The notes beneath the pieces are model-generated. The model made no database searches. It saw only the letters and a list, made by a program, of their open reading frames with translations, and was not told the origin of the DNA. A stretch of 64,000 bases of DNA, taken from an uncultured Eubacteriales bacterium (GTDB lineage Bacteria; Bacillota; Clostridia; Oscillospirales; CAG-272). Every line of letters starts with the position of its first letter. Positions within the stretch are counted from its first letter, which is position 1. The DNA is taken from positions 46,856 through 110,855 of the forward strand of contig UQNQ01000004.1 of NCBI GenBank assembly GCA_900542425.1, in the 5' to 3' direction. Position numbers and translations under genes: made by a program. Of the stretch, positions 5,932-38,760 are shown one piece after another.

Positions 5932-5962
5932 GGTGATATCCAAAGGAAGGAAGGTATCGGCT

Positions 5963-11525: not shown

Positions 11526-11558
11526 AAAAGACCTGGCGTGATATCGCCAGGTCTTTTT
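11526..11558 (+). terminator. rho-independent terminator of feo operon
   Basis: GACCTGGCG-tgatat-CGCCAGGTC followed by TTTTT. Confidence 0.8.
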
Positions 11559-11588
11559 GCGAGAATCCCGGATTTTCATGTCTTTATC

Positions 11589-11617
11589 TTGACTTTACCG
11601 GATGGTTACGATATAAT
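11589..11617 (+). promoter_or_regulatory. sigma-A type promoter
   Basis: TTGACT, 17-nt spacer, TATAAT. Confidence 0.6.
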
Positions 11618-11660
11618 TGGGAAAAGGAAAAACATTTTGTTGAAAAAGGAAATCCTTTGT

Positions 11661-13331
11661 ATGATAGACAAAGAGTTTCGGGTTGTCCGGAAGAATTATG
11701 CCGTCACACTGGGCAGAACCCATTTTTCGGTTGAGGCATATGGCACGTATTTTTTCACTTTTTCTCCGATCAGCGCAGTTCCGTGCGGAAATATGGAGGA
11801 TATCGACGATGCGGAATCGATGTCTTTTCAGATTTCGGAAAAAGAGGAAAATACGGTCGCTGTTTGGATGACGAGCAGCAATCTTTGGAGGCGAAAAGAA
11901 TATATACTGAAGATTGAGCCGGAAGGCTTTCATTATTCTGTTCGCGTTTTCGGCACCGGATCACCGCGTGATATCCATTATTTTTCGGGTACGGTTGTTG
12001 GGGGAAAACAGGGAGCTGTTTATGAAACCTCAGAATATATGCTGACACAGCCGCATATCGGAATAGAAAACCATTATTTTTCTATGGCGGAAGATAATAA
12101 AATTTCCATGCAGCTTATGGTTCCGCCTCCTCTTTGCTTTCCGTTCCGAACGGAAAATAGTCAAGCATGGTTCGGCATCGGACTTGTCGCAGATGCAGGC
12201 TGTTATCACTTTGATGGATTTTCTTACCGAAACATCCAGAACCGGGCTCATTTTTCCGTAGATTTATACGGTGCGCAAAAAGTGGATGGAGAATGGACAG
12301 CTCCGGGTATTTTCGGTTGTCCCGGGAAAGATGAGTGGGAAGTGCTGAGGGAATATGCGGCATGGCATTTCCGGAGCGGCTGCCATAAGACGGAAGTGTT
12401 TCCTGCACCGTGGTGGTACGGACCTTTTTTCTGCGGCTGGGGTGAGCAGGCAATTCTGAAATGGAAATATCATACGGACATTTACGGTGCGGCTTCTGAG
12501 GCGGCATATACGGAAATGTCGGAGCATCTCGACGCGCTTGGTTTGCATCCGACGGCCATGATCATTGATGATAAATGGCAGGAGAAGTACGGCACTTTTT
12601 TACCGGATCTGGTGAAATGGCCGAATTTGCGCGGATTTACAGACCGAGAACATGCGAAAGGTCGGCATGTGCTGCTCTGGTATCGCTGCTGGTCTGCGGA
12701 AGGGTTGCCTTTGGATGAATGTATTTTGCAGGATGGTAAGCCTCTTGCCGGAGATCCGACGAATCCGCGGTATATCGAGCGGGTGAAGCATACGGTTCAT
12801 ACATTGCTTTCAGAAGAATCCGGATGCTTTGGCTGTGACGGTTTTAAAATTGATTTTGCGGATCAGGTGCCGACAGGGGAAAATCTCGTGACATGGGAAT
12901 CCGGTGTATATGGAATAGAACTGGTCAAACGGCTGATTGCTTTGATTTATCATGCGGCAAAAGAAGTAAAATCAGATGCTTTGATCAGTTGCAGCGGGTG
13001 CCATCCGTATTTTGCAGATGTAACCGATATGGCAAGGCTGCATGATTATGACTTACGTTTGCGCAGTGTAGAACGATGTATGTCTTTTCGTGCAAAGCTC
13101 TATCGGATTATGCTGCCGGATGCTCTGATTGATACAGACTTTCCTGCCTTTGCCGGATATCATGACTCCATGAAATATCTGCGGATTGCTCCTTCTCTTG
13201 GTGTACCGGATTTATATCGCCTATCGGATACCGGTGAGTGCCGGTTTGAGAAGCGAGACTGGGAAGAAATCAGAATGATATGGAATGGATATACAAAGAA
13301 CATCTTAAACAAAATAAAAAATAATCCGTAA
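11661..13331 (+). CDS. putative glycoside hydrolase, (beta/alpha)8 GH31-like
   Basis: The track ORF starts at GTG 11538, inside the terminator and upstream of the promoter. I prefer ATG 11661. Motifs MIIDDKWQ, GRHVLLWY and GFKIDFAD recall GH31/GH36-clan catalytic barrels. The family assignment is unverified. Confidence 0.5.
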   Translation: MIDKEFRVVRKNYAVTLGRTHFSVEAYGTYFFTFSPISAVPCGNMEDIDDAESMSFQISEKEENTVAVWMTSSNLWRRKEYILKIEPEGFHYSVRVFGTGSPRDIHYFSGTVVGGKQGAVYETSEYMLTQPHIGIENHYFSMAEDNKISMQLMVPPPLCFPFRTENSQAWFGIGLVADAGCYHFDGFSYRNIQNRAHFSVDLYGAQKVDGEWTAPGIFGCPGKDEWEVLREYAAWHFRSGCHKTEVFPAPWWYGPFFCGWGEQAILKWKYHTDIYGAASEAAYTEMSEHLDALGLHPTAMIIDDKWQEKYGTFLPDLVKWPNLRGFTDREHAKGRHVLLWYRCWSAEGLPLDECILQDGKPLAGDPTNPRYIERVKHTVHTLLSEESGCFGCDGFKIDFADQVPTGENLVTWESGVYGIELVKRLIALIYHAAKEVKSDALISCSGCHPYFADVTDMARLHDYDLRLRSVERCMSFRAKLYRIMLPDALIDTDFPAFAGYHDSMKYLRIAPSLGVPDLYRLSDTGECRFEKRDWEEIRMIWNGYTKNILNKIKNNP

Positions 13332-17942: not shown

Positions 17943-18515
17943 ATGGCAAGACCGAAAGGGATCCCTTTTTCTGAAGAATATGCAAGCTCTAACTATGCGG
18001 AATTTTCCGTTTCCCGCAAGCCGGATCATACAATCAAATTGCGCCGGCTTTTATTGGTTCTTTTGTATATTATTTTTGCGGCGCTTTACTGCACGCTGTT
18101 TCTTGTAATATGGAAAATGGCACCGCTTATCGCTATTTTACCGCTGCTGCTTCTGATTTTATGCTATTTTACATGGAAGTTGACAAAAATTGAATATACG
18201 TATATTGTCTGTCAGGGACAATTTCATATCTATCAGGTAAACGGCTTTAATCGTGCAAAAGAAGTATTGGATGTTAAAATCAGTGAGAACGGCGGCGTTT
18301 TCCCTGCCGGTGACGAAGAGCATGCGGATACCTTGAAGGCATGTACGGTTACTTTGGACTATTCGGACGGAAAAGATACGCAGGATTTATATGTCGGGGT
18401 ATTTTCGCGCGGAGAGGATCAGATTGCGGTGTATTTTACAGCGGCGTCAAAGTTGCTCTCGAGTCTTCGTTATTATGGCGGCGACAAAGTGATCGTTGCG
18501 TACGTTTCCCATTGA
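17943..18515 (+). CDS. hypothetical membrane protein
   Basis: 190 aa. Two adjacent hydrophobic helices (LLLVLLYIIFAALYCTLFLVIW, APLIAILPLLLLILCYF), then a soluble domain. No recognisable motif. Confidence 0.5.
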   Translation: MARPKGIPFSEEYASSNYAEFSVSRKPDHTIKLRRLLLVLLYIIFAALYCTLFLVIWKMAPLIAILPLLLLILCYFTWKLTKIEYTYIVCQGQFHIYQVNGFNRAKEVLDVKISENGGVFPAGDEEHADTLKACTVTLDYSDGKDTQDLYVGVFSRGEDQIAVYFTAASKLLSSLRYYGGDKVIVAYVSH

Positions 18516-21170: not shown

Positions 21171-22028
21171 ATGAAAAAAATATGCATGTTTTTACTGGCA
21201 GCCGCCCTGCTACTTGCGATGATTTCCTGTTCTCTTATAAAAAAAGAGCCTGAACCGGTGGAGCCTATCGAAATTGATTTAGGGCTTGACTCTGTAAAAA
21301 AGGTGATTGAGGGCGACAAGACTTATCTTGTATTTTCCGATGTTTCAAGTACCGCAACAGAGGACGATTCTGCGTTTATTACACAGGTCGCCGGAGTTGG
21401 TTTCCGTTCAAAAAGTGATTTTTACAATGCGGTTACAGCCGGGGTTTTTACTTCCGAACAAAGGAGAAGTCTCTCTCAGTATGTCACCGCGGAAAATAAC
21501 CGGATCCTTGTTCCGGAACCTGAAACGATCACCGAACTTTCCCCGCGGGGAGATGATGTCTTAAGTACAATACGCTGGTACGGCGGCGATTCCTATTCGA
21601 TTCGTTATGATACCGATTCTTATTACTACTATTTTTCTACGGGAATCGATTATGAGACCGCACATGATTTTTATCTTCAGGAAAACGCGTTGAAAACCAA
21701 AAACCAGATACATTATACCGAAAACGGAATTCACTATACGCAATATGATTATATCGGTGCGGTGTCCGGCGAATATATGAGGCTTTTGCGCTGGGATTAT
21801 GAGGCGGACGAGATAACCTATTCGGTTCTGCAGACCGTTTATGCGGCGGAGGAAGAGGATATTCAAACTTCAGGCAGAAGCGGATATGAAAATTTTACGA
21901 TTGTAATCGATGATGGTGATACGATTTCTCTTGTGAATTCTGGAACTGGTGATGTCTTAAAATCGGTCCTTGTAGACGAGACTTTTGTTACGTCGTTTGT
22001 TCCGCAGGCAATGGTTTTTTCGGAATAG
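21171..22028 (+). CDS. hypothetical lipoprotein
   Basis: 285 aa. Signal peptide MKKICMFLLAAALLLAMISC with a lipobox-like Cys. RBS AAAGGAGG. No recognisable domain. Confidence 0.6.
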   Translation: MKKICMFLLAAALLLAMISCSLIKKEPEPVEPIEIDLGLDSVKKVIEGDKTYLVFSDVSSTATEDDSAFITQVAGVGFRSKSDFYNAVTAGVFTSEQRRSLSQYVTAENNRILVPEPETITELSPRGDDVLSTIRWYGGDSYSIRYDTDSYYYYFSTGIDYETAHDFYLQENALKTKNQIHYTENGIHYTQYDYIGAVSGEYMRLLRWDYEADEITYSVLQTVYAAEEEDIQTSGRSGYENFTIVIDDGDTISLVNSGTGDVLKSVLVDETFVTSFVPQAMVFSE

Positions 22029-22034
22029 TAGAAT

Positions 22035-22067
22035 AAAAGGAAGCACGGTATAACTGTGCTTCCTTTT
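22035..22067. terminator. bidirectional terminator
   Basis: AAAAGGAAGCAC-loop-GTGCTTCCTTTT, between convergent genes. Confidence 0.75.
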
Positions 22068-22079
22068 ATTCTATATTGT

Positions 22080-24584
22080 TTAAGCAAGTCCGAATTTTTT
22101 CGCGGCTTCCTCACGCATTTTATATTTGAGAATTTTTCCTGCGGCATTCATCGGAAAGCTATCTACGAAATCAACATAGCGGGGAACTTTATGCCGTGCC
22201 ATGCTTGCCGCGACGAACGATTTGATTTCTTCTTCCGTCGCTGTTTCTCCGTCTCGAAGAACGATGCACGCCATGATTTCCTCTCCGTAGCGTTTGTCGG
22301 GTACACCGATGACCTGAACATCCTTGACTTTCGGGTGTGTATAGAGAAATTCCTCAATTTCCTTTGGATAAATATTTTCTCCGCCTCGGATAATCATATC
22401 CTTAAGACGACCGGTAATTCGGTAGTTTCCGTCCGGTGTGCGGCAGGCAAGATCTCCTGTATGCAGCCAACCGTCATGATCGATGACCGCGGCGGTAGCG
22501 GACGGCATTTTGTAGTATCCTTTCATTACATTGTAGCCGCGTGCAACAAATTCTCCGTTTGTGCCGTCCGGTGCGTCAAGTCCGGTTTCAGGATCGATGA
22601 TTTTGCATTCCACATGCGGAAATGCATATCCGACGGTTTCGCAACGGATATCAAGCGGATCATCGAGTTCTGTCATCGTACAGCCGGGTGAGGATTCTGT
22701 TTGTCCGTATACGCTGACAATACCGCGCATATTCATTTCGTCCGGCATCGCTGCCCGGCGCATCAGATCTGCCGGACAGTTGGATCCAGCCATAATGCCG
22801 GTGCGCATATAGGAAAAATCCGTTTTGCGATAATCTTCATGGTTCATCATAGCAATGAACATGGTCGGTACTCCGTGGAAACAGGTAATATGCTCGTCAT
22901 TTACGCACGCAAGAGAGGATTTGGGTGAAAAGTAGGGAAGCGGCAGTACGGTTGCGCCATGCGTCATAGCGGCGGTCATGGCAAGAACCATCCCGAAGCA
23001 GTGGAACATCGGAACCTGAATCATCATACGGTCCGCTGTGGAAAGATCCATACGATCTCCGATGCATTTGCCGTTATTGACGACATTGTAGTGGGTGAGC
23101 ATGACACCTTTCGGGAATCCTGTTGTACCGGAGGTATACTGCATGTTGCAGACGTCTTGAGGAGAGACCTTTTCCGCCATTGCTTTTATGGTTTCCTCAG
23201 AGACTCCTATGCTGCGGGAAACCGCTTCCTCCCATGTCATACAACCTTTTTGACGGAATCCGACTGTAATGACATTGCGCAGAAAGGGAAGTCTTCTCGC
23301 GTGAAGCGGCTCCATCGGATCTTTTTGAGAAAGCTCCGGACAAAGTTCTGCGATGATTTCTGCATAATCGGAGTCGCGCCAGCCGTGTATCATAATCAGA
23401 GTATGGGTGTCTGATTGCCGAAGAAGATATTCTGCTTCATGAATTTTATAGGCGGTATTGACTGTGACAAGTACCGCGCCGATTTTGGTGGTTGCCCAAA
23501 AGGCAATATACCATTGCGGCAGGTTGGTTGCCCAAACGGCGACATGAGAGCCTGCCCGCACTCCCATATCGACAAGCGCTCTGGCAAAGGTATCGACATC
23601 ATCCCGGAATTCCGCATAGGTACGTGTATAATCAAGCGTTGTATATTTAAAAGCATACTGGTCGGGGAATTCCTCAACGAGACGATCCAGTACCTCAGAG
23701 AAAGTCAGATCGACGAGCGCTTCTTTCTGCCAAATAAATTTTCCTGTATGAAGTTTATTTTCATAGAGCTTTTTTTCCGCCCGCTCTAAACTTTTGTATT
23801 TCGACATATAACTTGTGAAATGCAAAAGGATGATGTCCATGTCGGTCATATCGGGCATCCACGCCGGATCCCACTCGAGAGAAATGAAGCCGTCATAGTT
23901 GATGGAACGCAGAGCAAGCATCATTTCATCCAGAGGCAGTGTACCTTCGCCAATCAGACGATATTCCGGTTTGCCGTCTATCATTTCCGAATCCTTCAGA
24001 TGAATATGTTTGATATAAGCGCCGAGGTTTTTAAGAGAGGTTTCTGCGCTTTCACCTGCTTTTCTGTAGGTGTGGTGCATATCCCAAAGCGCACCGAGAT
24101 TGTCGCAGGCAAAGCGATCAAGTACGGCGCAAAGTCTGGAGGTATCCGCATAAATTCCGACGGTTTCAAGAAGCAGAGTAACATTTTCTTTTTCTGCTTC
24201 CGGCACGAGCGCTTCCAGATACCGGCAGACTGTCGCATCTGCTTTATCCGCATCCGCGGCACATGCTCTGACACGTACATAGGGAATTTTCAGGCTTGCC
24301 GCCGTTTCGATGCAATCGACAATTTCCGCTACTGTCGTTTCAAAATCCGACATGTCGGAAATATCACGTACAGAATCGACACACGGTACGGAAATGCCTC
24401 TTTCCATTAGATTCCGATATGTCGCACGGATCATATTTTTGTCAAATACCGCATTTTTTCCGGTAAAAATACGGTTGTGAATATCATGAATTTCAATGCC
24501 GTCGTATCCCATTTCGACAGCCTTGTCGCAAAAATCTTTCCAGGACGGAACTTGCCATCCCTTGGTGGAAAACGAAAATTTCAT
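22080..24584 (-). CDS. fusion protein: xylose-isomerase-like TIM barrel + AMP-forming acyl-CoA ligase
   Basis: 834 aa. Residues 1-265 or so (MKFSFSTKGW...GYDGIEIHD...HIHLKD...ISLEWD) form a sugar-phosphate isomerase/epimerase-type barrel. The rest is ANL superfamily (YTSGTTGFPKGVMLTH, YGQTE, WLHTGD, GRLKDMIIRGGENIYP, GKILK). RBS GAGGAGG. Starts 20 nt after the LeuA-like stop. Confidence 0.85.
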   Translation of the reverse strand: MKFSFSTKGWQVPSWKDFCDKAVEMGYDGIEIHDIHNRIFTGKNAVFDKNMIRATYRNLMERGISVPCVDSVRDISDMSDFETTVAEIVDCIETAASLKIPYVRVRACAADADKADATVCRYLEALVPEAEKENVTLLLETVGIYADTSRLCAVLDRFACDNLGALWDMHHTYRKAGESAETSLKNLGAYIKHIHLKDSEMIDGKPEYRLIGEGTLPLDEMMLALRSINYDGFISLEWDPAWMPDMTDMDIILLHFTSYMSKYKSLERAEKKLYENKLHTGKFIWQKEALVDLTFSEVLDRLVEEFPDQYAFKYTTLDYTRTYAEFRDDVDTFARALVDMGVRAGSHVAVWATNLPQWYIAFWATTKIGAVLVTVNTAYKIHEAEYLLRQSDTHTLIMIHGWRDSDYAEIIAELCPELSQKDPMEPLHARRLPFLRNVITVGFRQKGCMTWEEAVSRSIGVSEETIKAMAEKVSPQDVCNMQYTSGTTGFPKGVMLTHYNVVNNGKCIGDRMDLSTADRMMIQVPMFHCFGMVLAMTAAMTHGATVLPLPYFSPKSSLACVNDEHITCFHGVPTMFIAMMNHEDYRKTDFSYMRTGIMAGSNCPADLMRRAAMPDEMNMRGIVSVYGQTESSPGCTMTELDDPLDIRCETVGYAFPHVECKIIDPETGLDAPDGTNGEFVARGYNVMKGYYKMPSATAAVIDHDGWLHTGDLACRTPDGNYRITGRLKDMIIRGGENIYPKEIEEFLYTHPKVKDVQVIGVPDKRYGEEIMACIVLRDGETATEEEIKSFVAASMARHKVPRYVDFVDSFPMNAAGKILKYKMREEAAKKFGLA

Positions 24585-24604: not shown

Positions 24605-26008
24605 TTAGATATTTTCGTCATAGGCGATCTTGTTGATCGCATTCACATAGGCACGGATGCTCGAGCCGATAATATCCGTAGAAATTCCGTTCCCAGAATA
24701 AAGTTTCCCGTCGCGGCGGAGTTTCACGAGAGCCGATCCCATTGCTTCTTTTCCTTCTGTGACGGATTGAATCTGAAAATCGTCCAGTTCATATTTTTTG
24801 CCGATGATTTGATCGACCGCAAGGAATGCCGCGTCAATCGGACCATGACCGGCGCAGACTCCCTCAAGGATCTCTCCATTTTTTTCCATTTTGATATAAG
24901 CAGTGGAGGCGATTCCGCTTCCGTTTGTCACCATAAAACCAATGAGACGATACGTATCCGGTACCTGGAGAGCAACGGTAGCGATAATGGCTTCGAGTTC
25001 TACGGCGCCGACGCTTTTTTTGGCGGCTGTGCTTACGACGGACTCATAAACCTTCGCGAGATCTTCGTCGGAAAGATCATATCCGAGTTTTTTCACAGCG
25101 GCTGTAACCGTTTCGATATCGTCACCTTCACTCAGCGCTGCGATATCGTTTCGACTGTCGGGTACGGTAATTTTGTCGGCTGAAACGGAAGAAATTCCGG
25201 TTACAAGGCCGAGCGCACGCAACGACCGTTTCATTTCCGTAATCCGGATGCCGCAGCGAAGACCAATATCCTCTCCGCGGATACGAATGATTTGAGAAAG
25301 TTCGCTGAGTGAGGGAGCTGAGGAAGCATTTCCTACCGTAACTGCGGCACCCGAGGCTCCTGCGCGGAGCGCAGATACCGTGCAGGCGGCGGCAAGAGAG
25401 ATTCCGTTTGCACATTGTATTTCAAGAGGAATATCAGAAAGAGCCGGAATCTCATGTATGAGTTTTTCGATAAAAGCTGAAATTTCATCTGGCATCATAT
25501 TTCCGGCACTGTCACATATGGTGATGGTTGTGGCACCGGCGGATATTGCGGCGCTGATTGCCTGCACAAGGTAAGTAGTTTCGCTTCTGGTCGCATCTTC
25601 TGCGGCGAAATTGACGTTTTCCGTATGCGTTTTTGCATGTGAAACAAGTTCGGTGATGAGCTCGAGAACTGCTGCCGGCTTTTTCCCGCAGTTATATTCC
25701 ATTCCTACGGCGGACATCGGAATGGAAATGAAAAGCTCTGATTTTTTCGCTGTACATACGGCATTCCATGCTTCGTCTACGGATTGAATCGTATAACCCC
25801 CCGCCGGCATAGACAGCGTACTGTTTGAAACAACGGCGGCCATGGTTCTTGTCGCCATTGTATCCGGCTTCGGATTGCGGATCATGGGAAGCCGTATGGT
25901 GTCCACGCCCAGTCGGTCGAGCACCTTTGCTACTTCAACCTTTTCTTTAAAAGAAAGTGATTCACCAGATTCGGTAAGTGTGATATCGGTGAGCTTGATT
26001 TGTTTCAT
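24605..26008 (-). CDS. LeuA/homocitrate-synthase-like protein with degenerate catalytic motifs and intact LeuA-dimer regulatory domain
   Basis: 467 aa. Collinear with isopropylmalate synthase (EKVEVAKVLDRLGVDTI, FAAEDATRSE, GATTITICDSAGNMMPDE, and a C-terminal YELDDFQIQSVTEGKEAMGSALVKL...G.GISTDIIGSSIRAYVNAINK). However DTTLRDGEQ is DITLTESGE, HxHND is QCANG, and GERAGN is GNASSAPS. Confidence 0.75.
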   Translation of the reverse strand: MKQIKLTDITLTESGESLSFKEKVEVAKVLDRLGVDTIRLPMIRNPKPDTMATRTMAAVVSNSTLSMPAGGYTIQSVDEAWNAVCTAKKSELFISIPMSAVGMEYNCGKKPAAVLELITELVSHAKTHTENVNFAAEDATRSETTYLVQAISAAISAGATTITICDSAGNMMPDEISAFIEKLIHEIPALSDIPLEIQCANGISLAAACTVSALRAGASGAAVTVGNASSAPSLSELSQIIRIRGEDIGLRCGIRITEMKRSLRALGLVTGISSVSADKITVPDSRNDIAALSEGDDIETVTAAVKKLGYDLSDEDLAKVYESVVSTAAKKSVGAVELEAIIATVALQVPDTYRLIGFMVTNGSGIASTAYIKMEKNGEILEGVCAGHGPIDAAFLAVDQIIGKKYELDDFQIQSVTEGKEAMGSALVKLRRDGKLYSGNGISTDIIGSSIRAYVNAINKIAYDENI

Positions 26009-26060
26009 GTAAACCTCCTTGCGCAGCGCCTGACACGCTGATTAGCAATTTTTTAGAATA

Positions 26061-26352
26061 AAAAAAGCCGTTCCTGTGAAAATTCACAGGGACGACAATC
26101 CATTTGGCCGCGGTACCACCCCGATTACCGTTCATGAGAACGGTCTCTTTTCCCGGTTCGGCAAAAATGCTTAAACCGGTGCGGCTGTAACGGGCGCTTC
26201 CGTAGTCATCTAATCCGTTTCCGTTTCAAAGACTCCGCTCCGGAATGAGACTGTACACGCTTCCGTTGCTGTCTGCTCGCACCGTCCGCAGACTCTCTGA
26301 ACGCCGTAAAGCCATACATAATTCCATCATCGCGTTTGTTTTTTGATTACTA
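26061..26352 (-). promoter_or_regulatory. T-box riboswitch leader, specifier CUC (Leu)
   Basis: On the reverse strand: GCGATGATGGAA (K-turn/Stem I base), AGAGAG bulge, GGTGCGAG distal loop, and a specifier loop ..GTCTC-A-TTCC with CTC at 26249-26247. The T-box is GGGGTGGTACCGCGG (26120-26106). The terminator is GTCGTCCCTGTG-aatttt-CACAGGAACGGC followed by T7. Confidence 0.85.
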
Positions 26353-26358
26353 CATATC

Positions 26359-26387
26359 ACTATAACAGAAAATTTTTTGCTTGTCAA
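26359..26387 (-). promoter_or_regulatory. promoter of Leu T-box operon
   Basis: Reverse strand: TTGACA, 17-nt spacer, TATAGT. Confidence 0.6.
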
Positions 26388-26509: not shown

Positions 26510-27301
26510 TTAGTTCATTGGAAAGAGACGCATAAAATTTCCGGAAAAGAACATCTCGTATTCTGCCTCGGAAAGCCCGAATGTCCGAACGCGCTCAAGC
26601 TCTCCTGTGGCATCCCAAATAGGAAAATCCGTGCCGAACATGAACCGGTCAATCCCGAATTTTTCAAACATAGAAAGGGCATAGTCCCGTGAAATGAACA
26701 TGGTGGAACTGGAAGTATCAAACCAAAGCCTGTCGGAGGGAACCAGCAAATCATGTGCTTCCTGCCATCTTCTGTATCCGCCGAAATGTGCGGCGATCAC
26801 GGTCAGATCGGGGATTTTTTTCATAACTGTCGCAAGTTTTGCCGGCGAGGAGGATTCATACCGGTCGTCTCCCATATGCATTAAAAGGGGAAGACCGCGC
26901 TTCGCAATGGCGCGATAGAGAGGAAATACCTTTTCATCGTCAATGTCAAATTTTTGAAAGTCGGGATGCAGCTTGATTCCGCGAAGTCCGAGGGAAACCG
27001 CACGGTCAATTTCCTCTTCAAAATTCCTGTAATACGGATGAATGGAGGCAAGCGCTGTGAAACAATCGTGGTCTTTCGCCATTTGTGCCATAAAATCGGT
27101 GATCGTTTCTGTTTGATCCGGTGTAACAGCGGCGGAACAAACAAGATAATGAGAAACGCCGGCGGCAGTTCCGTCTTTTAACAGATTGGCAACGGAAGCA
27201 GGGGCGCAGTATTTCATTTGATAGAATCCACCGATGGATTTGGATACCTTTTCCGATATTTTATCAGGGAAAATATGCGTATGGGCATCTATGATTTTCA
27301 T
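26510..27301 (-). CDS. amidohydrolase-2 / TatD-like metal-dependent hydrolase
   Basis: 263 aa. MKIIDAHTHIFP, LHPDFQ, LLMHMGD, FGTDFP. Confidence 0.8.
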   Translation of the reverse strand: MKIIDAHTHIFPDKISEKVSKSIGGFYQMKYCAPASVANLLKDGTAAGVSHYLVCSAAVTPDQTETITDFMAQMAKDHDCFTALASIHPYYRNFEEEIDRAVSLGLRGIKLHPDFQKFDIDDEKVFPLYRAIAKRGLPLLMHMGDDRYESSSPAKLATVMKKIPDLTVIAAHFGGYRRWQEAHDLLVPSDRLWFDTSSSTMFISRDYALSMFEKFGIDRFMFGTDFPIWDATGELERVRTFGLSEAEYEMFFSGNFMRLFPMN

Positions 27302-27606: not shown

Positions 27607-27886
27607 ATCATAATAAAAAAGCTGTGACGGAGAGGATCCGAATCTAATGCTTTCAGAGAGCCGGTGGCAGGTGAGAACCGGTGGCAGGCGATTCAAGTGG
27701 TCTATCGCTCCCGAGCTGGAATCGTGAAAATCGTGTGATGATGAAGTAGCGCTTCCCGTGATTGCTGCGTCAAGGCATGGGGCTTGTCGGAGTCCGAGAG
27801 AGGCGGTCTTTTGATCGCAATTTGAGTGGTACCGCGGATGTATTTATACACCCGTCTCAAAGAAATTGAGACGGGTGTTCCTTTTT
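27607..27886 (+). promoter_or_regulatory. T-box riboswitch leader, probable specifier AUC (Ile)
   Basis: Stem I base AGCT-GTGAC-GGAG (27620-27632) pairs with CTCC-CG-AGCT (27708-27717). AGAGAG bulge, GGTGAGAAC distal loop. ATC (27704-27706) followed by a purine lies directly 5' of the closing CTCC. The T-box is TTGAGTGGTACCGCGG (27822-27837). The terminator is ACACCCGTCTC-loop-GAGACGGGTGT followed by a T-run. Confidence 0.8.
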
Positions 27887-27963: not shown

Positions 27964-30240
27964 ATGGATGCACAAACACAAACGATGTCGGGACAGCTTT
28001 TGGAGATTGCCGCGCGTATTCGGGAAATGCGGCAGGTCTCCGGTTTTACCGAGGCGGAAATGGCGGAAAAAACAGACACCAGTGTGGAGGAATACAGACG
28101 TTATGAGCTGGGAGAGCTTGATTTTCCTTTTACCTTTATCCATAAATGCGCGATCGCATTTGGAATTGCGATTGCGGATTTGTTAGAGGGAGAAAGTCCA
28201 AAGCTGTCCTCCTATATGGTAACACGAAAGGGAGAAGGACAACAAACGGCAAAGGAAGACGGTATCAGTATTCAAAATCTTGCACCTTTGTTTCGCGGCA
28301 AGCTGGCTGAACCGTATTGGGTACGTTATGATTATTCTGAGGAGTTGCAGCGCCGCCCGATTCATTTGACGACGCATTCCGGACAGGAATTTGATATTGT
28401 GCTTTCCGGTAGGCTGAAGGTGCAGGTCGGCGCCAATACGGAAATTTTAAATGAAGGCGACAGTATTTTTTACGATTCTTCCACGCCGCACGGAATGATC
28501 GCCGTAGACGGACGGGATTGTTGCTTCTGTGCCGTGGTTATCCCCGGCGAAGCGAAATCGGAGAGGGAGATCCGCGACAGCGTGGTTTCGGCACGAAGTG
28601 TGGAAAAGCTTGTGTGCAGCAAGTTTATTGAGACAGTAGAAGATGAAAACGGAACGCCGAAGGAAATCCGTTACAAAAATCCGGAACAATTTAATTTTGC
28701 TTTTGATATTGTCGATGAACTTGCGGCAAAATATCCGAATAAAACCGCTATGATACATCTTGACCGTGATAAAAACGAAAGAATTTTTACTTTTGCCGAT
28801 ATCAAACGCGCTTCTTCGCAATGTGCAAATTATTTTAAGTCGCTCGGAATTCGGAAAGGGGACCGCGTGATGCTGGTGCTAAAACGGCATTATGAGTTCT
28901 GGTTTGCTATTATCGGACTTCATAAACTCGGCGCGATTGCCATTCCCGCAACCAACCTGTTAAAGGATCATGATTATGTTTACCGTTTCAACGCCGCCGG
29001 TGTTTGTGCAATTATTTGCTCGGCAGACGGGGATATTGCGGAACAGGTAGATCTTGCTACTTCTCAGTCTCCGACGCTGAAAACAAAAATCCTTGTCGGC
29101 GGCAGGCGTGAGGGATGGTATGATTTTGACAGCAGCTATAATCTTTTCTCCGGAAAATTTGCGCGTGAAAAGGACGCACCGTGCGGTTCGGATACCATGC
29201 TGATGTTCTTTACCTCCGGTACGACGGGATATCCGAAAATAGCTGCTCACAGCTATACCTATCCGCTTGCCCATTTTGCTACGGCAAAGTATTGGCATTC
29301 GGTAGATGCCGACGGACTGCACTTTACCATTTCCGATACAGGCTGGGGGAAAGCTCTATGGGGCAAGCTTTATGGACAATGGCTATGCGAGGGCGCCGTC
29401 TTTACTTATGATTTTGACCGTTTTCATGCCGCCGATATTCTGCCGTTGTTTGCAAAATATCATATTACAACGTTCTGTGCTCCGCCGACGATGTACCGCA
29501 TGATGATTAAAGAAGATATTTCCAAATATGATTTCAGTTCTGTTAAACGCGCGACAACTGCCGGAGAAGCGCTGAATCCGGAGGTGTTTGTGCAGTTTGA
29601 AAAGGCTACGGGACTTCAGCTAATGGAGGGCTTCGGACAGACGGAAACCACGCTCACGATTGCCAACCTTACAGGAGTTGCACACAAGATCGGCGCGATG
29701 GGTAAGCCGGTTCCTCCTTATGAAATTGAGCTTCTTTCTCCGGAAGGAAAGCCAGTTGCAGACGGCGAAACAGGAGAAATCTGTATCAAAACGGAGGACG
29801 GAAAGGTTCCTTGCGGACTTTTCAAAGGCTATTGGGGCGAGCCTGAAAAGACAGCGGAGGTTTGGCACGACGGATATTATCATACAAGAGATGTCGCATG
29901 GCGCGATGAGGACGGATTTTTCTGGTATGTCGGACGGAGCGACGATGTTATCAAATCTTCCGGCTATCGGATCGGTCCGTTTGAAATCGAAAGCGTCATT
30001 ATGGAGCTTCCGTATGTATTGGAATGCGGTGTATCCGCGGCGCCGGACGAAGTGAGAGGACAGGTCGTCAAGGCGAGTGTTGTCTTGACCAAAGGAACAG
30101 AGCCTACGGAGGCGCTCAAAAAAGAAATTCAGGAATATGTGAAAGCAAAAACGGCGCCGTATAAATATCCCCGTATTGTCGTATTCAGGGATGAGCTTCC
30201 CAAAACGATCAGCGGGAAAATTATCCGCAATCAGCTGTAA
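27964..30240 (+). CDS. fusion protein: XRE HTH + cupin + AMP-forming (medium/short-chain) acyl-CoA synthetase
   Basis: 758 aa. N-terminal HTH (IREMRQVSGFTEAEMAEKTDTSVEEYRRYELGE). Cupin (HSGQEFDIVLSGRLKVQVG...GDSIFYDSSTPHGM). Then ANL motifs FFTSGTTGYPK, GFGQTET, YHTRDVAWRDEDGFFWYVGRSDDVIKSSGYRIGPFEIES, PKTISGKIIR. Confidence 0.85.
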   Translation: MDAQTQTMSGQLLEIAARIREMRQVSGFTEAEMAEKTDTSVEEYRRYELGELDFPFTFIHKCAIAFGIAIADLLEGESPKLSSYMVTRKGEGQQTAKEDGISIQNLAPLFRGKLAEPYWVRYDYSEELQRRPIHLTTHSGQEFDIVLSGRLKVQVGANTEILNEGDSIFYDSSTPHGMIAVDGRDCCFCAVVIPGEAKSEREIRDSVVSARSVEKLVCSKFIETVEDENGTPKEIRYKNPEQFNFAFDIVDELAAKYPNKTAMIHLDRDKNERIFTFADIKRASSQCANYFKSLGIRKGDRVMLVLKRHYEFWFAIIGLHKLGAIAIPATNLLKDHDYVYRFNAAGVCAIICSADGDIAEQVDLATSQSPTLKTKILVGGRREGWYDFDSSYNLFSGKFAREKDAPCGSDTMLMFFTSGTTGYPKIAAHSYTYPLAHFATAKYWHSVDADGLHFTISDTGWGKALWGKLYGQWLCEGAVFTYDFDRFHAADILPLFAKYHITTFCAPPTMYRMMIKEDISKYDFSSVKRATTAGEALNPEVFVQFEKATGLQLMEGFGQTETTLTIANLTGVAHKIGAMGKPVPPYEIELLSPEGKPVADGETGEICIKTEDGKVPCGLFKGYWGEPEKTAEVWHDGYYHTRDVAWRDEDGFFWYVGRSDDVIKSSGYRIGPFEIESVIMELPYVLECGVSAAPDEVRGQVVKASVVLTKGTEPTEALKKEIQEYVKAKTAPYKYPRIVVFRDELPKTISGKIIRNQL

Positions 30241-30929
30241 TGAGGAGAAAGGGGTGTTCTGCCTTGAATATTTCCCGTGTTACGCTGTTTGCAGGACATT
30301 ACGGCAGCGGCAAGACCAATATTGCCGTGAATTATGCCGTTTATCTTGCGGCATTGAATTATTCCGTCACCATTGCCGATCTTGATATCGTCAATCCATA
30401 TTTTCGTACCAAGGACAGTGAAAATCTGCTTACATCTCACGGCATTCGTCTGATCAGTCCCGTCTATGCAAATACCAATCTTGATCTTCCTGCGCTTCCG
30501 GCAGAAATGTACGATGTTGTCCGGGATACGGATCGTCTTGCCGTGCTGGATATCGGCGGTGACGACCGGGGTGCCTATGCCCTTGGAAGATATGCTCCTT
30601 CTATTTTGGAGGAAAACCGGTATGAGATGCTGTTTGTCGCAAATTTTTACCGTCCCTTGACAAGAAACGCAGGGGAGGCGCTTGAGGTGATGAGGGAAAT
30701 TGAATGCGCCTGCGGGATGCGGTTTACCGCGCTTGTCAACAATTCCAATCTGGGAGAAGAAACGACTGCACAGACAGTGCTCGAATCTGTTCCGGAAGCG
30801 GAGCGGCTTGCCGGTATGTGCGGCTTGCCTGTCAAAATGACGACGGTTTGCCGGAAACTTCTTCCAGAACTTTCTGACAGTATTCATCATTTATTTGCGT
30901 TGGATCTTCAAACAAAATATTATGAATAA
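30240..30929 (+). CDS. MinD/ParA/CooC-like P-loop ATPase
   Basis: 229 aa. Deviant Walker A FAGHYGSGKTNIA, and LDIGGDD. The start is uncertain: the ATG at 30240 overlaps the upstream stop, while TTG 30264 lies 9 nt after GAGGAGAAAGGGG. Confidence 0.65.
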   Translation: MRRKGCSALNISRVTLFAGHYGSGKTNIAVNYAVYLAALNYSVTIADLDIVNPYFRTKDSENLLTSHGIRLISPVYANTNLDLPALPAEMYDVVRDTDRLAVLDIGGDDRGAYALGRYAPSILEENRYEMLFVANFYRPLTRNAGEALEVMREIECACGMRFTALVNNSNLGEETTAQTVLESVPEAERLAGMCGLPVKMTTVCRKLLPELSDSIHHLFALDLQTKYYE

Positions 30930-30998: not shown

Positions 30999-31205
30999 AT
31001 GGCAAAGCTTACATTCAAAACCGATCTTTGTAAGGGATGCGGACTGTGCGTAGATGCCTGTCCAAAGAAAATCCTTGCACTCGCAAAAGGAAAAATCAAT
31101 AAAAAAGGACACAATCCCGTTGAGGTGATTGACGAGAGCGCATGTATCGGCTGTGCTTTTTGTGCAACGATGTGTCCGGACTGCATTATCACGGTAGAAA
31201 AATAA
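30999..31205 (+). CDS. 2-oxoacid:ferredoxin oxidoreductase delta subunit (2x[4Fe-4S] ferredoxin)
   Basis: 68 aa. CKGCGLCVDACP and CIGCAFCATMCP. RBS AAAGGAG. Confidence 0.8.
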   Translation: MAKLTFKTDLCKGCGLCVDACPKKILALAKGKINKKGHNPVEVIDESACIGCAFCATMCPDCIITVEK

Positions 31206-31253
31206 AAATGACTGCGTTCCGGCTCGAATGCCGGAATGACATGGAGGGTTAGT

Positions 31254-32318
31254 ATGGCAGAAAAAGTACTTATGAAAGGGAATGAGGCGATCGCTGAGGC
31301 GGCGATTGCCGCCGGTTGCCGCCATTATTACGGCTATCCGATCACGCCTCAAACCGAAATTGCAGCTTATATGGCAAAGCGAATGCCGAAGATAGGAGGC
31401 GTTTTCCTTCAGGCGGAAAGTGAAATTGCCGCTATCAATATGGTTTACGGAACCGCTTCTGCGGGGTATCGTGTGATGACTTCTTCGTCGAGCCCCGGTA
31501 TCTCGCTTAAATCAGAAGGGCTTTCCTATATTGCAGGAAGTGATCTGCCGTCTCTTGTTGTCAATGTTCAGCGAGGCGGGCCTGGACTCGGCAGCATTCA
31601 GCCGGCACAGTCCGATTATTTTCAGGCAACTAAGGGAGGCGGTCACGGAGACTATCACATGATTGTTCTGGCGCCTGCTTCTGTACAGGAAATGGCAAGC
31701 CTGACGGTGCGCGGCTTTGATCTTGCGGATAAATATCGTATGACTTCGATGATCCTTGCCGACGGGACGATGGGTCAGATGATGGAGCCCGTTTCCTTTG
31801 AAAGCATTGAGGTGAAGAAATATGATAAGCCATGGGCATTGACTGGCACGCATGGAAAACGGGAGCATAACATTATTACATCGCTTTCTCTTGTTCCGAA
31901 GGAACTTGAAAAATGGAACTTTGATCGTTACGAGAGATACCGCCTGATTGAAGAAAATGAAGTGATGTATGAAGAATTTATGATGGAAGATGCAGAAGTC
32001 TGCATTGTTGCATTTGGTATTACTGCACGTGTATCGCAGAATGCTATCCGTATGGCACGCGAAAAAGGTATCCGTGCAGGTATGATTCGCCCGATCACGC
32101 TTTGGCCGTTTCCCAAAAAGCCTCTTGAAGCGGCTGCTGAACGTGTGAAAGCGTTTGTTTCTGTCGAGCTCTCTATGGGACAGATGATTGAGGATGTAGA
32201 GCTTGCAACGAGATGTAAAAAGCCGGTTTTGCTCTGCAATCGTGTGGGCGGTATGATTCCGTCTCCGGAGCTTGTACTCTCAAAAATCGAAGAAGCGAAC
32301 GGAGGAGAGAAAAAATGA
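31254..32318 (+). CDS. 2-oxoacid:ferredoxin oxidoreductase alpha subunit (VorB/KorA-like)
   Basis: The track ORF starts at 31236. The ATG at 31254 follows GGAGGG. MAEKVLMKGNEAIAEAAIAAGCRHYYGYPITPQTEI, QRGGPGLG, KGGGHGDY. Confidence 0.85.
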   Translation: MAEKVLMKGNEAIAEAAIAAGCRHYYGYPITPQTEIAAYMAKRMPKIGGVFLQAESEIAAINMVYGTASAGYRVMTSSSSPGISLKSEGLSYIAGSDLPSLVVNVQRGGPGLGSIQPAQSDYFQATKGGGHGDYHMIVLAPASVQEMASLTVRGFDLADKYRMTSMILADGTMGQMMEPVSFESIEVKKYDKPWALTGTHGKREHNIITSLSLVPKELEKWNFDRYERYRLIEENEVMYEEFMMEDAEVCIVAFGITARVSQNAIRMAREKGIRAGMIRPITLWPFPKKPLEAAAERVKAFVSVELSMGQMIEDVELATRCKKPVLLCNRVGGMIPSPELVLSKIEEANGGEKK

Positions 32319-33085
32319 TTGTGTTTGATAAACCGAAATCCTTAACCGACGCGCCTCTGCATTATTGCCCGGGTTGTACACACGGTATTATTCATCGATT
32401 GGTTGCGGAGGCAATTGATTCACTGGGAATCGAGGGGATTGCCGTTGGCGTGGCACCGGTAGGCTGTGCAGTATTTGCGTATAACTATTTTGCCTGCGAC
32501 ATGGTGGAAGCAGCCCACGGACGTGCGCCGGCAGTCGCAACAGGACTCAAGCGCGCGGAACCGGAAAATATTATTTTTACTTATCAGGGCGACGGAGACC
32601 TTGCTTCCATAGGAATGGCGGAAACGGTACATGCCGCCGCAAGAAATGAAAATATCACCATTATTTTCGTCAACAATGCGATTTACGGTATGACAGGCGG
32701 ACAGATGGCTCCGACTTCGCTGCCCGGTCAGGTTACGCAGACATCTCCTTATGGACGCGATACTTCGGTTTGCGGGTTTCCGGTCCGTGTTTGCGAGATG
32801 CTTTCTCAGGTGGATGGGGCAGAGTATATTGAGCGTGTTGCCGTCAACAATGTGAAAAATATCAAAAATGCAGGACGGGCAATCAAAAAAGCATTTGAAA
32901 ATCAGATAAACGGAAAAGGCTTTTCTCTCATCGAAGTGATTTCTTCGTGTCCGACCAACTGGGGAATGACACCGAAAAAAGCACTTGAATGGGTAGAAGA
33001 AAAAATGATTCCGTATTATCCGCTTGGAATTTATAAGGATCGTTCAGCAGGCATTGTATACGGAAAGGAGGGGGCCGCGAAATGA
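32315..33085 (+). CDS. 2-oxoacid:ferredoxin oxidoreductase beta subunit (TPP-binding)
   Basis: 256 aa. YCPGCTHG, GDGD...NNAIYGMTGGQ is the TPP motif. ATGA overlap with alpha. Confidence 0.9.
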   Translation: MIVFDKPKSLTDAPLHYCPGCTHGIIHRLVAEAIDSLGIEGIAVGVAPVGCAVFAYNYFACDMVEAAHGRAPAVATGLKRAEPENIIFTYQGDGDLASIGMAETVHAAARNENITIIFVNNAIYGMTGGQMAPTSLPGQVTQTSPYGRDTSVCGFPVRVCEMLSQVDGAEYIERVAVNNVKNIKNAGRAIKKAFENQINGKGFSLIEVISSCPTNWGMTPKKALEWVEEKMIPYYPLGIYKDRSAGIVYGKEGAAK

Positions 33086-33618
33086 GCACAACAGAGATTT
33101 TGATTGCAGGCTTTGGCGGACAAGGGATTTTGTTTGCCGGAAAATTTCTCGCATACAAAGGAATGCTGGAAGAAAAGCAGATCAGCTGGCTGCCGTCTTA
33201 TGGCCCCGAGATGCGCGGCGGAACGGCAAACTGCAGTGTGATTATCAGCGATACGCCGGTCGGCTCTCCGATTGTTACGACTCCGAATGTTTTGATGGTG
33301 ATGAATCTGCCGTCCTTTGATAAATATGAGAATGACGTTGTGAAAGACGGAATTATTCTTGTGGACAGCACTTTGATCGAGCGGAAAGCATCGCGGGATG
33401 ATGTCAGTGTGTTTTACATTCCCGCAACGCAGATGGCGCAGGACGCAGGTGTTCCGACTCTTGCCAATATGATTATGGTAGGTAAGCTTCTGCGGGAATG
33501 TCCTGGGATGGATTATGAAAATACAGAGGCAGCGCTTAAAAAGGTTGTTTCCGCAAAACATATGGATCTCTTTGATTTGAATCTGAAAGCGATTGACATG
33601 GGGTATCACTTTGTCTGA
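33082..33618 (+). CDS. 2-oxoacid:ferredoxin oxidoreductase gamma subunit
   Basis: 178 aa. ILIAGFGGQGILFAGKFLA, YGPEMRGG. ATGA overlap with beta. Confidence 0.85.
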   Translation: MSTTEILIAGFGGQGILFAGKFLAYKGMLEEKQISWLPSYGPEMRGGTANCSVIISDTPVGSPIVTTPNVLMVMNLPSFDKYENDVVKDGIILVDSTLIERKASRDDVSVFYIPATQMAQDAGVPTLANMIMVGKLLRECPGMDYENTEAALKKVVSAKHMDLFDLNLKAIDMGYHFV

Positions 33619-37914: not shown

Positions 37915-38760
37915 ATGCCAGATATCAGAAATACCTCGCCGATCTGCGGCGGACCGGGCCGTGATTCGGTATATATAGACACCAATAGAATCCTCGATAG
38001 CTGCCGTGACAAGGACTGCTATGAGGATGTAGTCGTTTATCTTTCGGATGTGGGAAGCGATCTGATTGACAGAAGCGGAAGTGTGCGTACCAAAAGTGCC
38101 AAAGTAATTTGTGCAAACATACAGGTTGATACCGTACCGTTCAATCGTGGCTTTTATCAGGTCAGCATTACGATGTATATTAAAATTGTATGCGAAGTAT
38201 GTGCCTGCATCGGAAGACCGCAGGAGGTTGAGGGTATTGCTGTTGTAGAGAAAAAAGTCATTCTTTACGGCAGTGAAGGAAATGTTAATATATTCAAGAG
38301 CGAACCCGGAGCACAGAACTTCTGTGGTTGTTCCTGCGCAGAGCAGCCCGGAACCAATCTGCCGATTGCCGTATTTGAGGTAGTTGATCCGATTGTTCTC
38401 AACACCAAAATTGTAGAGGCATGTGAATGCCGCGGCTGTCATCAGAGTCTGTCTGCTGCGGATCTTCCTGAATCTGTATGCAGCTGCATCAACGGAAGAA
38501 TCTGCTGTGAACCGGCAGGGAAGATTCTTACAGTATCACTCGGTTTCTTCTCCGTCGTGAGAATTGAGCGTCCGGCTCAGTATCTTGTTCATGGAACGGA
38601 ATATACGGTTCCTGAGAAGGAATGCGTATCTCCGACAACGGATGATCCATGTAAAATGTTTAAGCACATGGCTTTCCCGATCAATGAATTTTATCCGCCG
38701 TCCCTTTGTGATGTTAAGGGAAGCACAGATAACGATGGTTGCGGTTGCGGAAGAAAATAA
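37915..38760 (+). CDS. cysteine-rich hypothetical protein (about 22 Cys in 281 aa)
   Basis: RBS GGAGGGAG 7 nt upstream of the ATG. No signal peptide or TM helix. Cys clusters DSCRDKDC, VCEVCAC, FCGCSC, ACECRGC, VCSC..ICC, GCGCG. Followed by a terminator. No family recognised. Confidence 0.7.
   Translation: MPDIRNTSPICGGPGRDSVYIDTNRILDSCRDKDCYEDVVVYLSDVGSDLIDRSGSVRTKSAKVICANIQVDTVPFNRGFYQVSITMYIKIVCEVCACIGRPQEVEGIAVVEKKVILYGSEGNVNIFKSEPGAQNFCGCSCAEQPGTNLPIAVFEVVDPIVLNTKIVEACECRGCHQSLSAADLPESVCSCINGRICCEPAGKILTVSLGFFSVVRIERPAQYLVHGTEYTVPEKECVSPTTDDPCKMFKHMAFPINEFYPPSLCDVKGSTDNDGCGCGRK

Follow-up and report, generated by a model that had tools for sequence, protein, structure and literature searches.

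A two-gene operon behind a leucine T-box

The 64,000-nucleotide stretch of DNA analysed here (the window) comes from an uncultured Eubacteriales bacterium, and its minus strand carries the two-gene operon that is the subject of this study. The first gene encodes a 467-aa protein resembling 2-isopropylmalate synthase (IPMS, LeuA), and the second encodes an 834-aa protein with an AMP-forming acyl-CoA ligase domain; a T-box leader lies ahead of both (Table 1). The open reading frame (ORF) of the LeuA-like protein at 24605..26008 (minus strand) was confirmed, with the sequence quoted in a preliminary description of this DNA. The same description had placed a Leu T-box in front of this gene and the start of the ligase gene 20 nt past its stop codon. 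Both are real: the leader matches RF00230 with 104.3 bits against a gathering threshold of 93, and the spacer contains a GAGGAGG Shine-Dalgarno sequence. With a score above the threshold, the leucine specifier CUC and a terminator, the leader is of the Leu class. The promoter-like site agrees with the consensus at 11 of 12 positions and has an extended -10 TG. According to Pfam, the downstream gene encodes a fusion in which the ligase is preceded by an AP_endonuc_2/xylose-isomerase-like TIM barrel, a domain absent from the preliminary description.

The LeuA fold without the LeuA active site

The protein had been described as collinear with LeuA over both domains, and this holds in sequence and in structure. 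Pfam finds an HMGL-like domain (PF00682, aa 15-225, 1.1e-29) followed by LeuA_dimer (PF08502, aa 336-461, 7e-31; 107.3 bits, where the cut-off is 24.9, over positions 5-130 of the 131 in the profile), which is the domain order expected for 2-isopropylmalate synthase (EC 2.3.3.13). The best NCBIfam matches are LeuA equivalogs; at 283.5 bits, the protein fails all of their cut-offs, which are at least 532. By sequence, the nearest proteins of known structure are catalytic domains of IPMS (3RMJ, 8.8e-33). An AlphaFold2 (AF2) model built from 24 family members, with a predicted local distance difference test (pLDDT) score of 83.8, has IPMS, MAM and LeuA as its top Foldseek matches; it lies on IPMS barrels with a root-mean-square deviation of 1.7-1.9 A across ~275 residues and also matches the leucine-bound full-length LeuA of Mycobacterium tuberculosis (3FIG). 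Residues 272-287 of the model are disordered.

Alignment to Escherichia coli LeuA bears out the three motif losses that had been read from the sequence. DTTLRDGEQ has become DITLTESGE, replacing the substrate-binding Arg by Thr and the metal-binding Asp by Glu; the HTHDD of the metal-binding His motif has become QCANG; and the GIGERAGN loop has become the shorter GNASSAPS. Glu, Gln and Ala thus stand at the three metal-ligand positions. The alignment adds a further loss, a ~40-residue deletion that takes out the subdomain-I motif FAHSSGIHQDG. The metal ligands of IPMS are Asp81, His285 and His287 in M. tuberculosis numbering (PMC5498780), and its accessory domain is essential to catalysis (PMC9860122). 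With metal ligands, GERAGN loop and accessory segment all gone, nothing remains of the elements that the Claisen condensation is known to require.

The C-terminal regulatory domain, the part in which the leucine site of IPMS sits (PMC9860122), is intact as had been stated, with a full-length PF08502 match and the motifs GxGPIDA, GxEAMG and GxGISTDII all present. CimA, whose regulatory domain binds isoleucine, is of the same superfamily and likewise ends in an effector domain of this type; however, the C-terminal 172 aa of the LeuA-like protein score 134 bits to LeuA models and 30 bits to CimA, and the T-box is specific for leucine. The regulatory domain alone found no match among PDB sequences, and the family profile found a weak one to the regulatory domain of Leptospira interrogans CMS (3F6G, E = 3.7e-4).

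Compared with the short bacterial form of LeuA (E. coli, Neisseria meningitidis), the protein shares the fold, the domain order of barrel, accessory region and PF08502, 25-30% identity to the E. coli enzyme and the regulatory motifs, including the Gly equivalent to G462. It differs in being ~50 residues shorter, in lacking the metal ligands, the GERAGN loop and the subdomain-I motif, and in its genetic context, always ahead of an acyl-CoA ligase fusion.

A conserved family under purifying selection

A search of 5.8 billion proteins gave thousands of matches. The best 120 are 451-554 aa long and 47-74% identical, and all come from Clostridia and Synergistaceae; the cultivable Synergistes jonesii is one carrier. 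Some are named 'alpha-isopropylmalate synthase regulatory domain-containing protein' at NCBI and some '2-isopropylmalate synthase' at JGI; such names are either unspecific or incorrect. When 1.84 billion cluster representatives (a 50%-identity library) were searched exhaustively, the family separated cleanly from true LeuA: ~110 full-length family representatives of ~450-500 aa score 230-532 bits and match in a single stretch, whereas LeuA proteins (~500-516 aa) rank below them with at most 218 bits and a two-stretch match. A scan with the family alignment, one genome per species, places the family in more than 586 species-representative genomes or loci.

For residue counts, 160 loci yielded 143 full-length intact ORFs of constant length, of which 139 were unique and were aligned to E. 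coli LeuA (numbering as in that protein). The metal-ligand Asp (D14) is kept in 0/139, H202 in 0/139 and H204 in 1/139. E234 and R235, from the GER of GERAGN, are kept in none, GER being deleted in all 139; H295, H300 and D302 are likewise kept in 0/139, and the AHSxGxHQDG motif of subdomain I (the His379 region) is deleted in 139/139. E141, which we take to be the catalytic base, survives in 19, and the substrate Arg (R13), a Thr in the window protein, survives in 47, about one third of the family. The regulatory domain presents the opposite picture. In GxGPxDA, G425, G427 and P428 are invariant, A431 is kept in 138 and D430 in 132; G457 is kept in 139/139, and so is each of G477, G479 and D483 in the GxGxxTDI region. 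G462, presumably a feedback-resistance site in E. coli LeuA, is kept in 136/139. Counted as motifs, the loops GxGPxDA, GxxAxG and GxGxxTDI that E. coli LeuA also has are present in 136-139 of the 139 members.

The mean frequency of the commonest residue is 0.56 in the barrel, 0.53 in the linker and 0.80 in the regulatory domain. Over 22 independent close pairs, the Nei-Gojobori ratio of nonsynonymous to synonymous substitution rates (dN/dS) comes to 0.095 in the barrel, 0.076 in the linker and 0.034 in the regulatory domain. These low values mean that the whole protein is kept by selection, most strongly its effector-binding domain. In a real LeuA, the opposite pattern of conservation between barrel and regulatory domain is to be expected.

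Loss of the canonical motifs could by itself point to a pseudogene in decay or to a faulty annotation. We consider this refuted by the number and constant length of the intact ORFs, by the dN/dS of 0.03-0.10 and by the conservation of both synteny and T-box control. The pseudoenzyme half of the earlier reading is thereby strengthened, with the catalytic residues lost throughout the family and the gene under purifying selection, not decaying.

It is very improbable that the protein is an enzyme with a new chemistry, either metal-independent or differently liganded, acting on an intermediate of the leucine pathway. The barrel fold is intact and under purifying selection, the equivalents of D142, R145 and D170 are invariant in it, and the operon encodes two more TIM-barrel-type domains. 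However, the known catalytic columns (R13, D14, E141, H202 and H204) vary, each with at least six residue types and without a new conserved replacement, and the deletion has taken out the accessory subdomain, which catalysis needs and which forms a cap over the active site. It is the combination of missing replacement residues and a deleted cap that makes new chemistry unlikely.

Obligate pairing with an acyl-CoA ligase fusion

The pairing of the two genes was followed in both directions. From the side of the LeuA-like gene, 80 of the more than 586 loci were retrieved from genomes, and the ligase fusion lies directly 3' of it in all 77 that have enough downstream DNA. In the reverse direction, a metagenome scan with the N-terminal domain of the ligase gave 80 loci, and the LeuA-like gene lies directly 5' of the ligase in 78/78 with upstream DNA. 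The intergenic distance in paired loci is mostly 2-11 nt. None of the loci examined has the LeuA-like gene within a leu operon. Identity across loci is 71-79% for the ligase domain, 45-53% for the LeuA-like protein and 37-54% for the N-domain of the ligase. The tie to the ligase, which the preliminary description had drawn from a single locus, has thus gained in weight as far as gene pairing goes; its further suggestion of a leucine-sensing function stays conjectural and is weighed below.

Catalytic residue loss, purifying selection and one conserved partner, the marks of a pseudoenzyme serving as a regulatory subunit, are all present. We conclude with high confidence that the family is a conserved, selected, non-catalytic LeuA paralogue, coupled to the ligase and controlled by a Leu T-box.

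The N-terminal barrel of the ligase is less clear in its purpose. An AF2 model made with database homologues has a pLDDT of 91, and Foldseek aligns it with sugar 3-epimerase-like barrels (TM-score 0.70-0.78); the fold search returned generic sugar-epimerase-like TIM barrels only and gave no functional clue. The E-D-H-E metal tetrad is complete in the window protein; across 64 members of the N-domain its four residues are kept in 54, 35, 57 and 39, respectively. This partial conservation weakens the idea that the domain adds a catalytic step, and the barrel may also be drifting toward a non-catalytic role. The matches listed by a homologue search with this domain are all shorter than 834 aa and many are labelled partial, which makes statistics of domain architecture unreliable. 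The window also encodes a second, stand-alone xylose-isomerase-like TIM-barrel protein (41717-42544, plus strand; PF01261, 9.5e-13).

T-box leaders sort the ligases by amino acid

T-boxes turn genes on when their cognate tRNA is uncharged, and in these loci the specifier codons sort the ligases by amino acid. At the Rfam gathering threshold, a T-box is found 5' of the LeuA-like gene in 20/27 loci; with a profile built from these Rfam-found leaders, one lies within 450 nt upstream in 103 of the 133 loci with room for it. Several loci that lack a near T-box have genes of a 2-oxoacid:ferredoxin oxidoreductase upstream of the LeuA-like gene. In the specifier column of the alignment, the codon before the LeuA-like gene is CUC in 98 cases and CUG in 8, that is, leucine in 106/107. 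Before the genes of a second type of ligase, which resembles MbcS of Staphylococcus aureus and carries an HTH-cupin module, the specifiers are AUC (19), GUC (4) and GUA (7), and in three loci with two copies of this gene each (L065, L074, L079), one copy follows an Ile leader and the other a Val leader. In one further locus (L080), a CUC T-box stands ahead of the genes for a ParA-like protein and the oxidoreductase.

Some leaders depart from the usual arrangement. The metagenomic locus L092 has two tandem T-boxes 5' of the LeuA-like gene (4009-4225 and 4285-4502), and in a clade of five loci (L139, L140, L142, L149 and L153) the Leu T-box lies farther upstream than usual; in L140, L142, L149 and L153 it ends ~550 nt before the LeuA-like start, and the stretch in between is unassigned. 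In L079, a tetrahydrofolate (THF) riboswitch (5597-5697; RF01831, 74.6 bits) lies ~2 kb upstream of the Leu T-box.

Neighbouring ligase, oxidoreductase and associated genes

Genes for the oxidoreductase, a ParA-like protein, the MbcS-like fusion and an Amidohydro_2 protein recur near the LeuA-like/ligase pair across loci, and all four are present in the window (Table 1). The ligase behind the Ile T-box scores 426 bits against the NCBIfam model of MbcS, whose cut-off is 850; it is thus MbcS-like, not an equivalog, and it also differs from MbcS in its HTH-cupin N-terminus. The ligase of the LeuA-like operon stands further apart: it falls in a different clade (best model PRK12583), shows ~25% identity to its MbcS-like neighbour and has the N-terminal TIM barrel. 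Fusion of the MbcS-like ligase to an N-terminal XRE-type HTH and a cupin is also seen in L004, L005, L012, L043, L065, L074, L079 and others; an HTH-cupin on an adenylating enzyme would make a transcription-factor-like sensor module, reminiscent of BirA.

In the oxidoreductase, the alpha subunit exceeds the VorB cut-off, and the beta, gamma and delta subunits match models of 2-oxoacid:ferredoxin oxidoreductases (OFOR) below the equivalog cut-offs. We refer to the enzyme as VOR (2-oxoisovalerate:ferredoxin oxidoreductase). Its genes are co-transcribed with or adjacent to the LeuA-like/ligase pair in many loci, lying 3' of the pair in the same direction in L009, L026, L070 and L071, and 34 nt 5' of it, again in the same direction, in L051. 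In most loci, the ParA/Mrp-like NTPase gene directly precedes that of the delta subunit of VOR, and the NTPase may be a maturation or assembly factor of the oxidoreductase. An Amidohydro_2 homologue lies near the pair in many loci at varying positions, 3' of the ligase in ~40% of them; the window protein has no NCBIfam match, and its closest solved relative is the uncharacterised 3IRS.

Table 1. Features of the LeuA-like operon and its neighbours (window coordinates)
Feature	Position	Strand	Basis or remark
Promoter-like TTGACA-17 nt-(TG)TATAGT	26359..26387	-	Directly 5' of the T-box; consensus match alone
T-box leader, specifier CUC (Leu) at 26247-26249	26085..26339	-	RF00230, full model 1-219
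T-box terminator hairpin (cctgtgaattttcacagg) and U run	26059..26090	-	Read from the sequence; overlaps the 3' end of the T-box model
LeuA-like protein, very probable pseudoenzyme	24605..26008	-	467 aa; Pfam, NCBIfam, AF2/Foldseek, alignments
Degenerate DRE-TIM (HMGL-like) barrel, aa 1-270	25199..26008	-	Metal ligands, GERAGN loop and substrate Arg lost
LeuA allosteric/dimerisation domain, aa 336-467	24608..25003	-	PF08502; GxGPIDA, GxEAMG, GxGISTDII intact
Xylose-isomerase-like (AP_endonuc_2) TIM barrel, N-terminal part of the fusion	23730..24584	-	PF01261, 4.1e-29
AMP-forming acyl-CoA ligase domain (presumed isovalerate-CoA ligase) and stop codon	22080..23729	-	PF00501 4e-87, PF13193
Long hairpin terminator ending the two-gene operon	22029..22073	.	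20-bp stem (terminator scan)
Amidohydro_2 protein	26510..27301	-	PF04909, 1.8e-33; upstream of the LeuA-like operon
Second T-box leader, specifier AUC (Ile)	27615..27862	+	RF00230, 94.3 bits
HTH-cupin-MbcS-like acyl-CoA synthetase fusion (presumed 2-methylbutyrate-CoA ligase)	27964..30240	+	Pfam HTH_3/HTH_31, Cupin_2, AMP-binding
ParA/Mrp-like P-loop NTPase	30240..30929	+	Weak CbiA/ParA Pfam matches; no NCBIfam match
Four-subunit 2-oxoacid:ferredoxin oxidoreductase	30999..33618	+	VorB subfamily model, alpha
Oxidoreductase delta subunit	30999-31205	+	
Oxidoreductase alpha/VorB subunit	31236-32318	+	538.9 bits, cut-off 399
Oxidoreductase beta subunit	32315-33085	+	
Oxidoreductase gamma subunit	33082-33618	+	

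A possible leucine-sensing subunit of an isovalerate-activating ligase

We propose that this operon is controlled by leucine at two levels. First, uncharged tRNA-Leu would turn on transcription from the promoter through the Leu T-box into the LeuA-like gene and the TIM-barrel/ligase fusion. The fusion ligase would presumably turn isovalerate into isovaleryl-CoA, which the linked VorB-type ferredoxin oxidoreductase, running in reverse, would carboxylate reductively to 2-oxoisocaproate; transamination would then yield leucine. In parallel branches behind Ile and Val T-boxes, the MbcS-like ligases would activate 2-methylbutyrate and isobutyrate. Second, the LeuA-like protein may dimerise via its regulatory domain, bind leucine there as IPMS does and dock on the ligase fusion as a trans-acting regulatory subunit. 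When leucine is plentiful, it would, presumably, throttle the ligase and with it the ATP-consuming first step, thus putting a fast metabolite feedback on top of the slower control by tRNA charging.

Several facts agree with the pathway. The Ile and Val T-box ligases of the MbcS type, together with the linked VorB-type oxidoreductase, point to synthesis of amino acids from branched-chain acids by reductive carboxylation. In the rumen, leucine is known to arise from isovalerate by carboxylation and subsequent amination (PMC7356843). Purified S. aureus MbcS uses 2-methylbutyrate and isobutyrate and uses isovalerate poorly (PMC10026030), which would explain a separate ligase for the leucine branch. 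The HTH-cupin module may be the own sensor of the Ile and Val ligases, making the idea of one sensor per ligase more coherent. We put forward only tentatively, with the balance tilting slightly against it, the whole system of three branches gated by tRNA charging, in which isovalerate, 2-methylbutyrate and isobutyrate would become leucine, isoleucine and valine through dedicated ligases and one VOR, with a sensor on each ligase and a LeuA-derived allosteric subunit in the leucine branch.

The acyl-CoA made by the ligase might instead feed lipid synthesis or catabolism, leaving the LeuA-like protein unrelated to amino-acid supply. Leucine degradation also runs via isovaleryl-CoA, and S. aureus MbcS serves the synthesis of branched-chain fatty acids (PMC10026030). 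We give this little credence in view of the leaders: leucine specifiers in 106/107 cases, isoleucine and valine codons in front of the paralogous ligases and, in L080, a Leu T-box ahead of the VOR genes form a pattern that fits supply and does not fit catabolism.

As to the role of the protein itself, its pseudoenzyme status, the LeuA-type domain, the pairing and the Leu T-box are together explained most economically if it is a leucine-responsive partner of the ligase. The full mechanism, in which a dead LeuA paralogue acts as the leucine-sensing regulatory subunit of an isovalerate-activating ligase, we hold to be about evenly balanced between right and wrong.

Several points weigh against it. 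We infer leucine binding, complex formation and the effect on the ligase, and the substrate of the ligase is deduced solely from T-box logic and the specificity of MbcS. No natural fusion of the LeuA-like protein to the ligase occurs among the best 150 representatives. The simple scheme from isovalerate to leucine leaves the N-terminal barrel of the ligase and the recurrent Amidohydro_2 protein unexplained. Moreover, the barrel of the LeuA-like protein is constrained (dN/dS ~0.1), with the D142, R145 and D170 equivalents invariant, so it must have some role, possibly the binding of a partner or ligand and possibly unrelated to leucine sensing.

This last point touches on the view that the protein is a structural partner without a regulatory function. 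As a scaffold, chaperone or hand-off subunit, it would bring ligase and oxidoreductase together or keep hold of isovaleryl-CoA or 2-oxoisocaproate, and its C-terminal domain would do no more than dimerise. Obligate pairing, with translational coupling likely, would suit such a partner, as would purifying selection on a barrel with invariant LeuA-type residues. Other HMGL-like barrels sit in substrate-channelling complexes with CoA-dependent partners (DmpG/DmpF-type Foldseek matches), and by the title of entry 3HPS the LeuA barrel of M. tuberculosis can hold 2-oxoisocaproate. However, the barrel has lost its contacts to 2-oxoacid and metal, and the strongest constraint falls on the effector domain, including GxGPxDA and GxGxxTDI, which is not obviously required for dimerisation; the Ile and Val branches, moreover, use the same oxidoreductase without a LeuA-like protein. 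We regard a purely structural role as unlikely.

Relation to known systems and significance

The nearest precedent for a leucine-sensing subunit of this origin is HisZ, a catalytically dead paralogue of HisRS that acts as the regulatory subunit giving histidine feedback to the short-form ATP phosphoribosyltransferase HisG. Like HisZ, the LeuA-like protein is a paralogue of an enzyme for the same amino acid, has lost catalysis while keeping the amino-acid-binding part and is encoded with the first committed enzyme of the pathway, and feedback by the end product is proposed for it. The two differ in their folds and in the partner, which is an adenylate-forming ligase here; complex formation and allostery have been demonstrated for HisZ, whereas for the LeuA-like protein they are conjectured. 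The leader has its counterpart in the Leu T-box of the Bacillus subtilis type, which controls ilv-leu biosynthesis. In both, an attenuator with a Leu specifier gates genes of leucine supply, presumably so in the window; the gated module here, however, would be one of salvage and reductive carboxylation, not LeuABCD. The likeness to S. aureus MbcS lies in the neighbouring ligases and in the presumed activation of short branched-chain acids by the locus.

The LeuA-like protein would be best classed as another case of enzyme paralogues recycled as allosteric subunits. We know of no pseudoenzyme of the DRE-TIM (LeuA/HMGL-like) type that serves as an allosteric subunit of an adenylate-forming enzyme. 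In the literature, we found no paper on this family, the fusion ligase or the T-box-sorted module, nothing specific on an isovalerate-CoA ligase with VOR or on T-box-controlled acyl-CoA synthetases, and no paper assigning the activating enzymes, or their regulation, for the carboxylation of branched-chain volatile fatty acids (VFAs). Physiologically, that carboxylation was recognised as early as the 1960s, and the growth-factor need of cellulolytic ruminococci rests on it. The locus looks like the apparently undescribed genetic basis of the conversion of branched-chain acids to amino acids in gut and rumen anaerobes.

If so, it would supply the genetics behind the classic branched-chain VFA requirement of ruminococci, and it offers a testable gene set of three T-box-sorted ligases and VOR. 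It is also a clean case of an allosteric domain that outlives its erased catalytic machinery, probably regulating another enzyme. Should our proposal be correct, the 'isopropylmalate synthase' labels of these proteins would be corrected, leucine auxotrophy and prototrophy would be better predicted in metabolic models of gut and rumen Clostridia, and a portable leucine-responsive module would become available for engineering.

Other observations in the window

Four ORFs, all on the plus strand, have no family match: 11538-13331 (597 aa), 17943-18515 (190 aa), 21171-22028 (285 aa) and 37915-38760 (281 aa). The 285-aa ORF was compared with NCBIfam and the other three with Pfam; it begins with a lipoprotein-like signal sequence. 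At 3093-7393, also on the plus strand, lies a cluster of genes for two [FeFe]-hydrogenase-like proteins, one of which has a PAS domain, and a SpoIIE-type phosphatase; it looks like a sensory-hydrogenase signalling unit.

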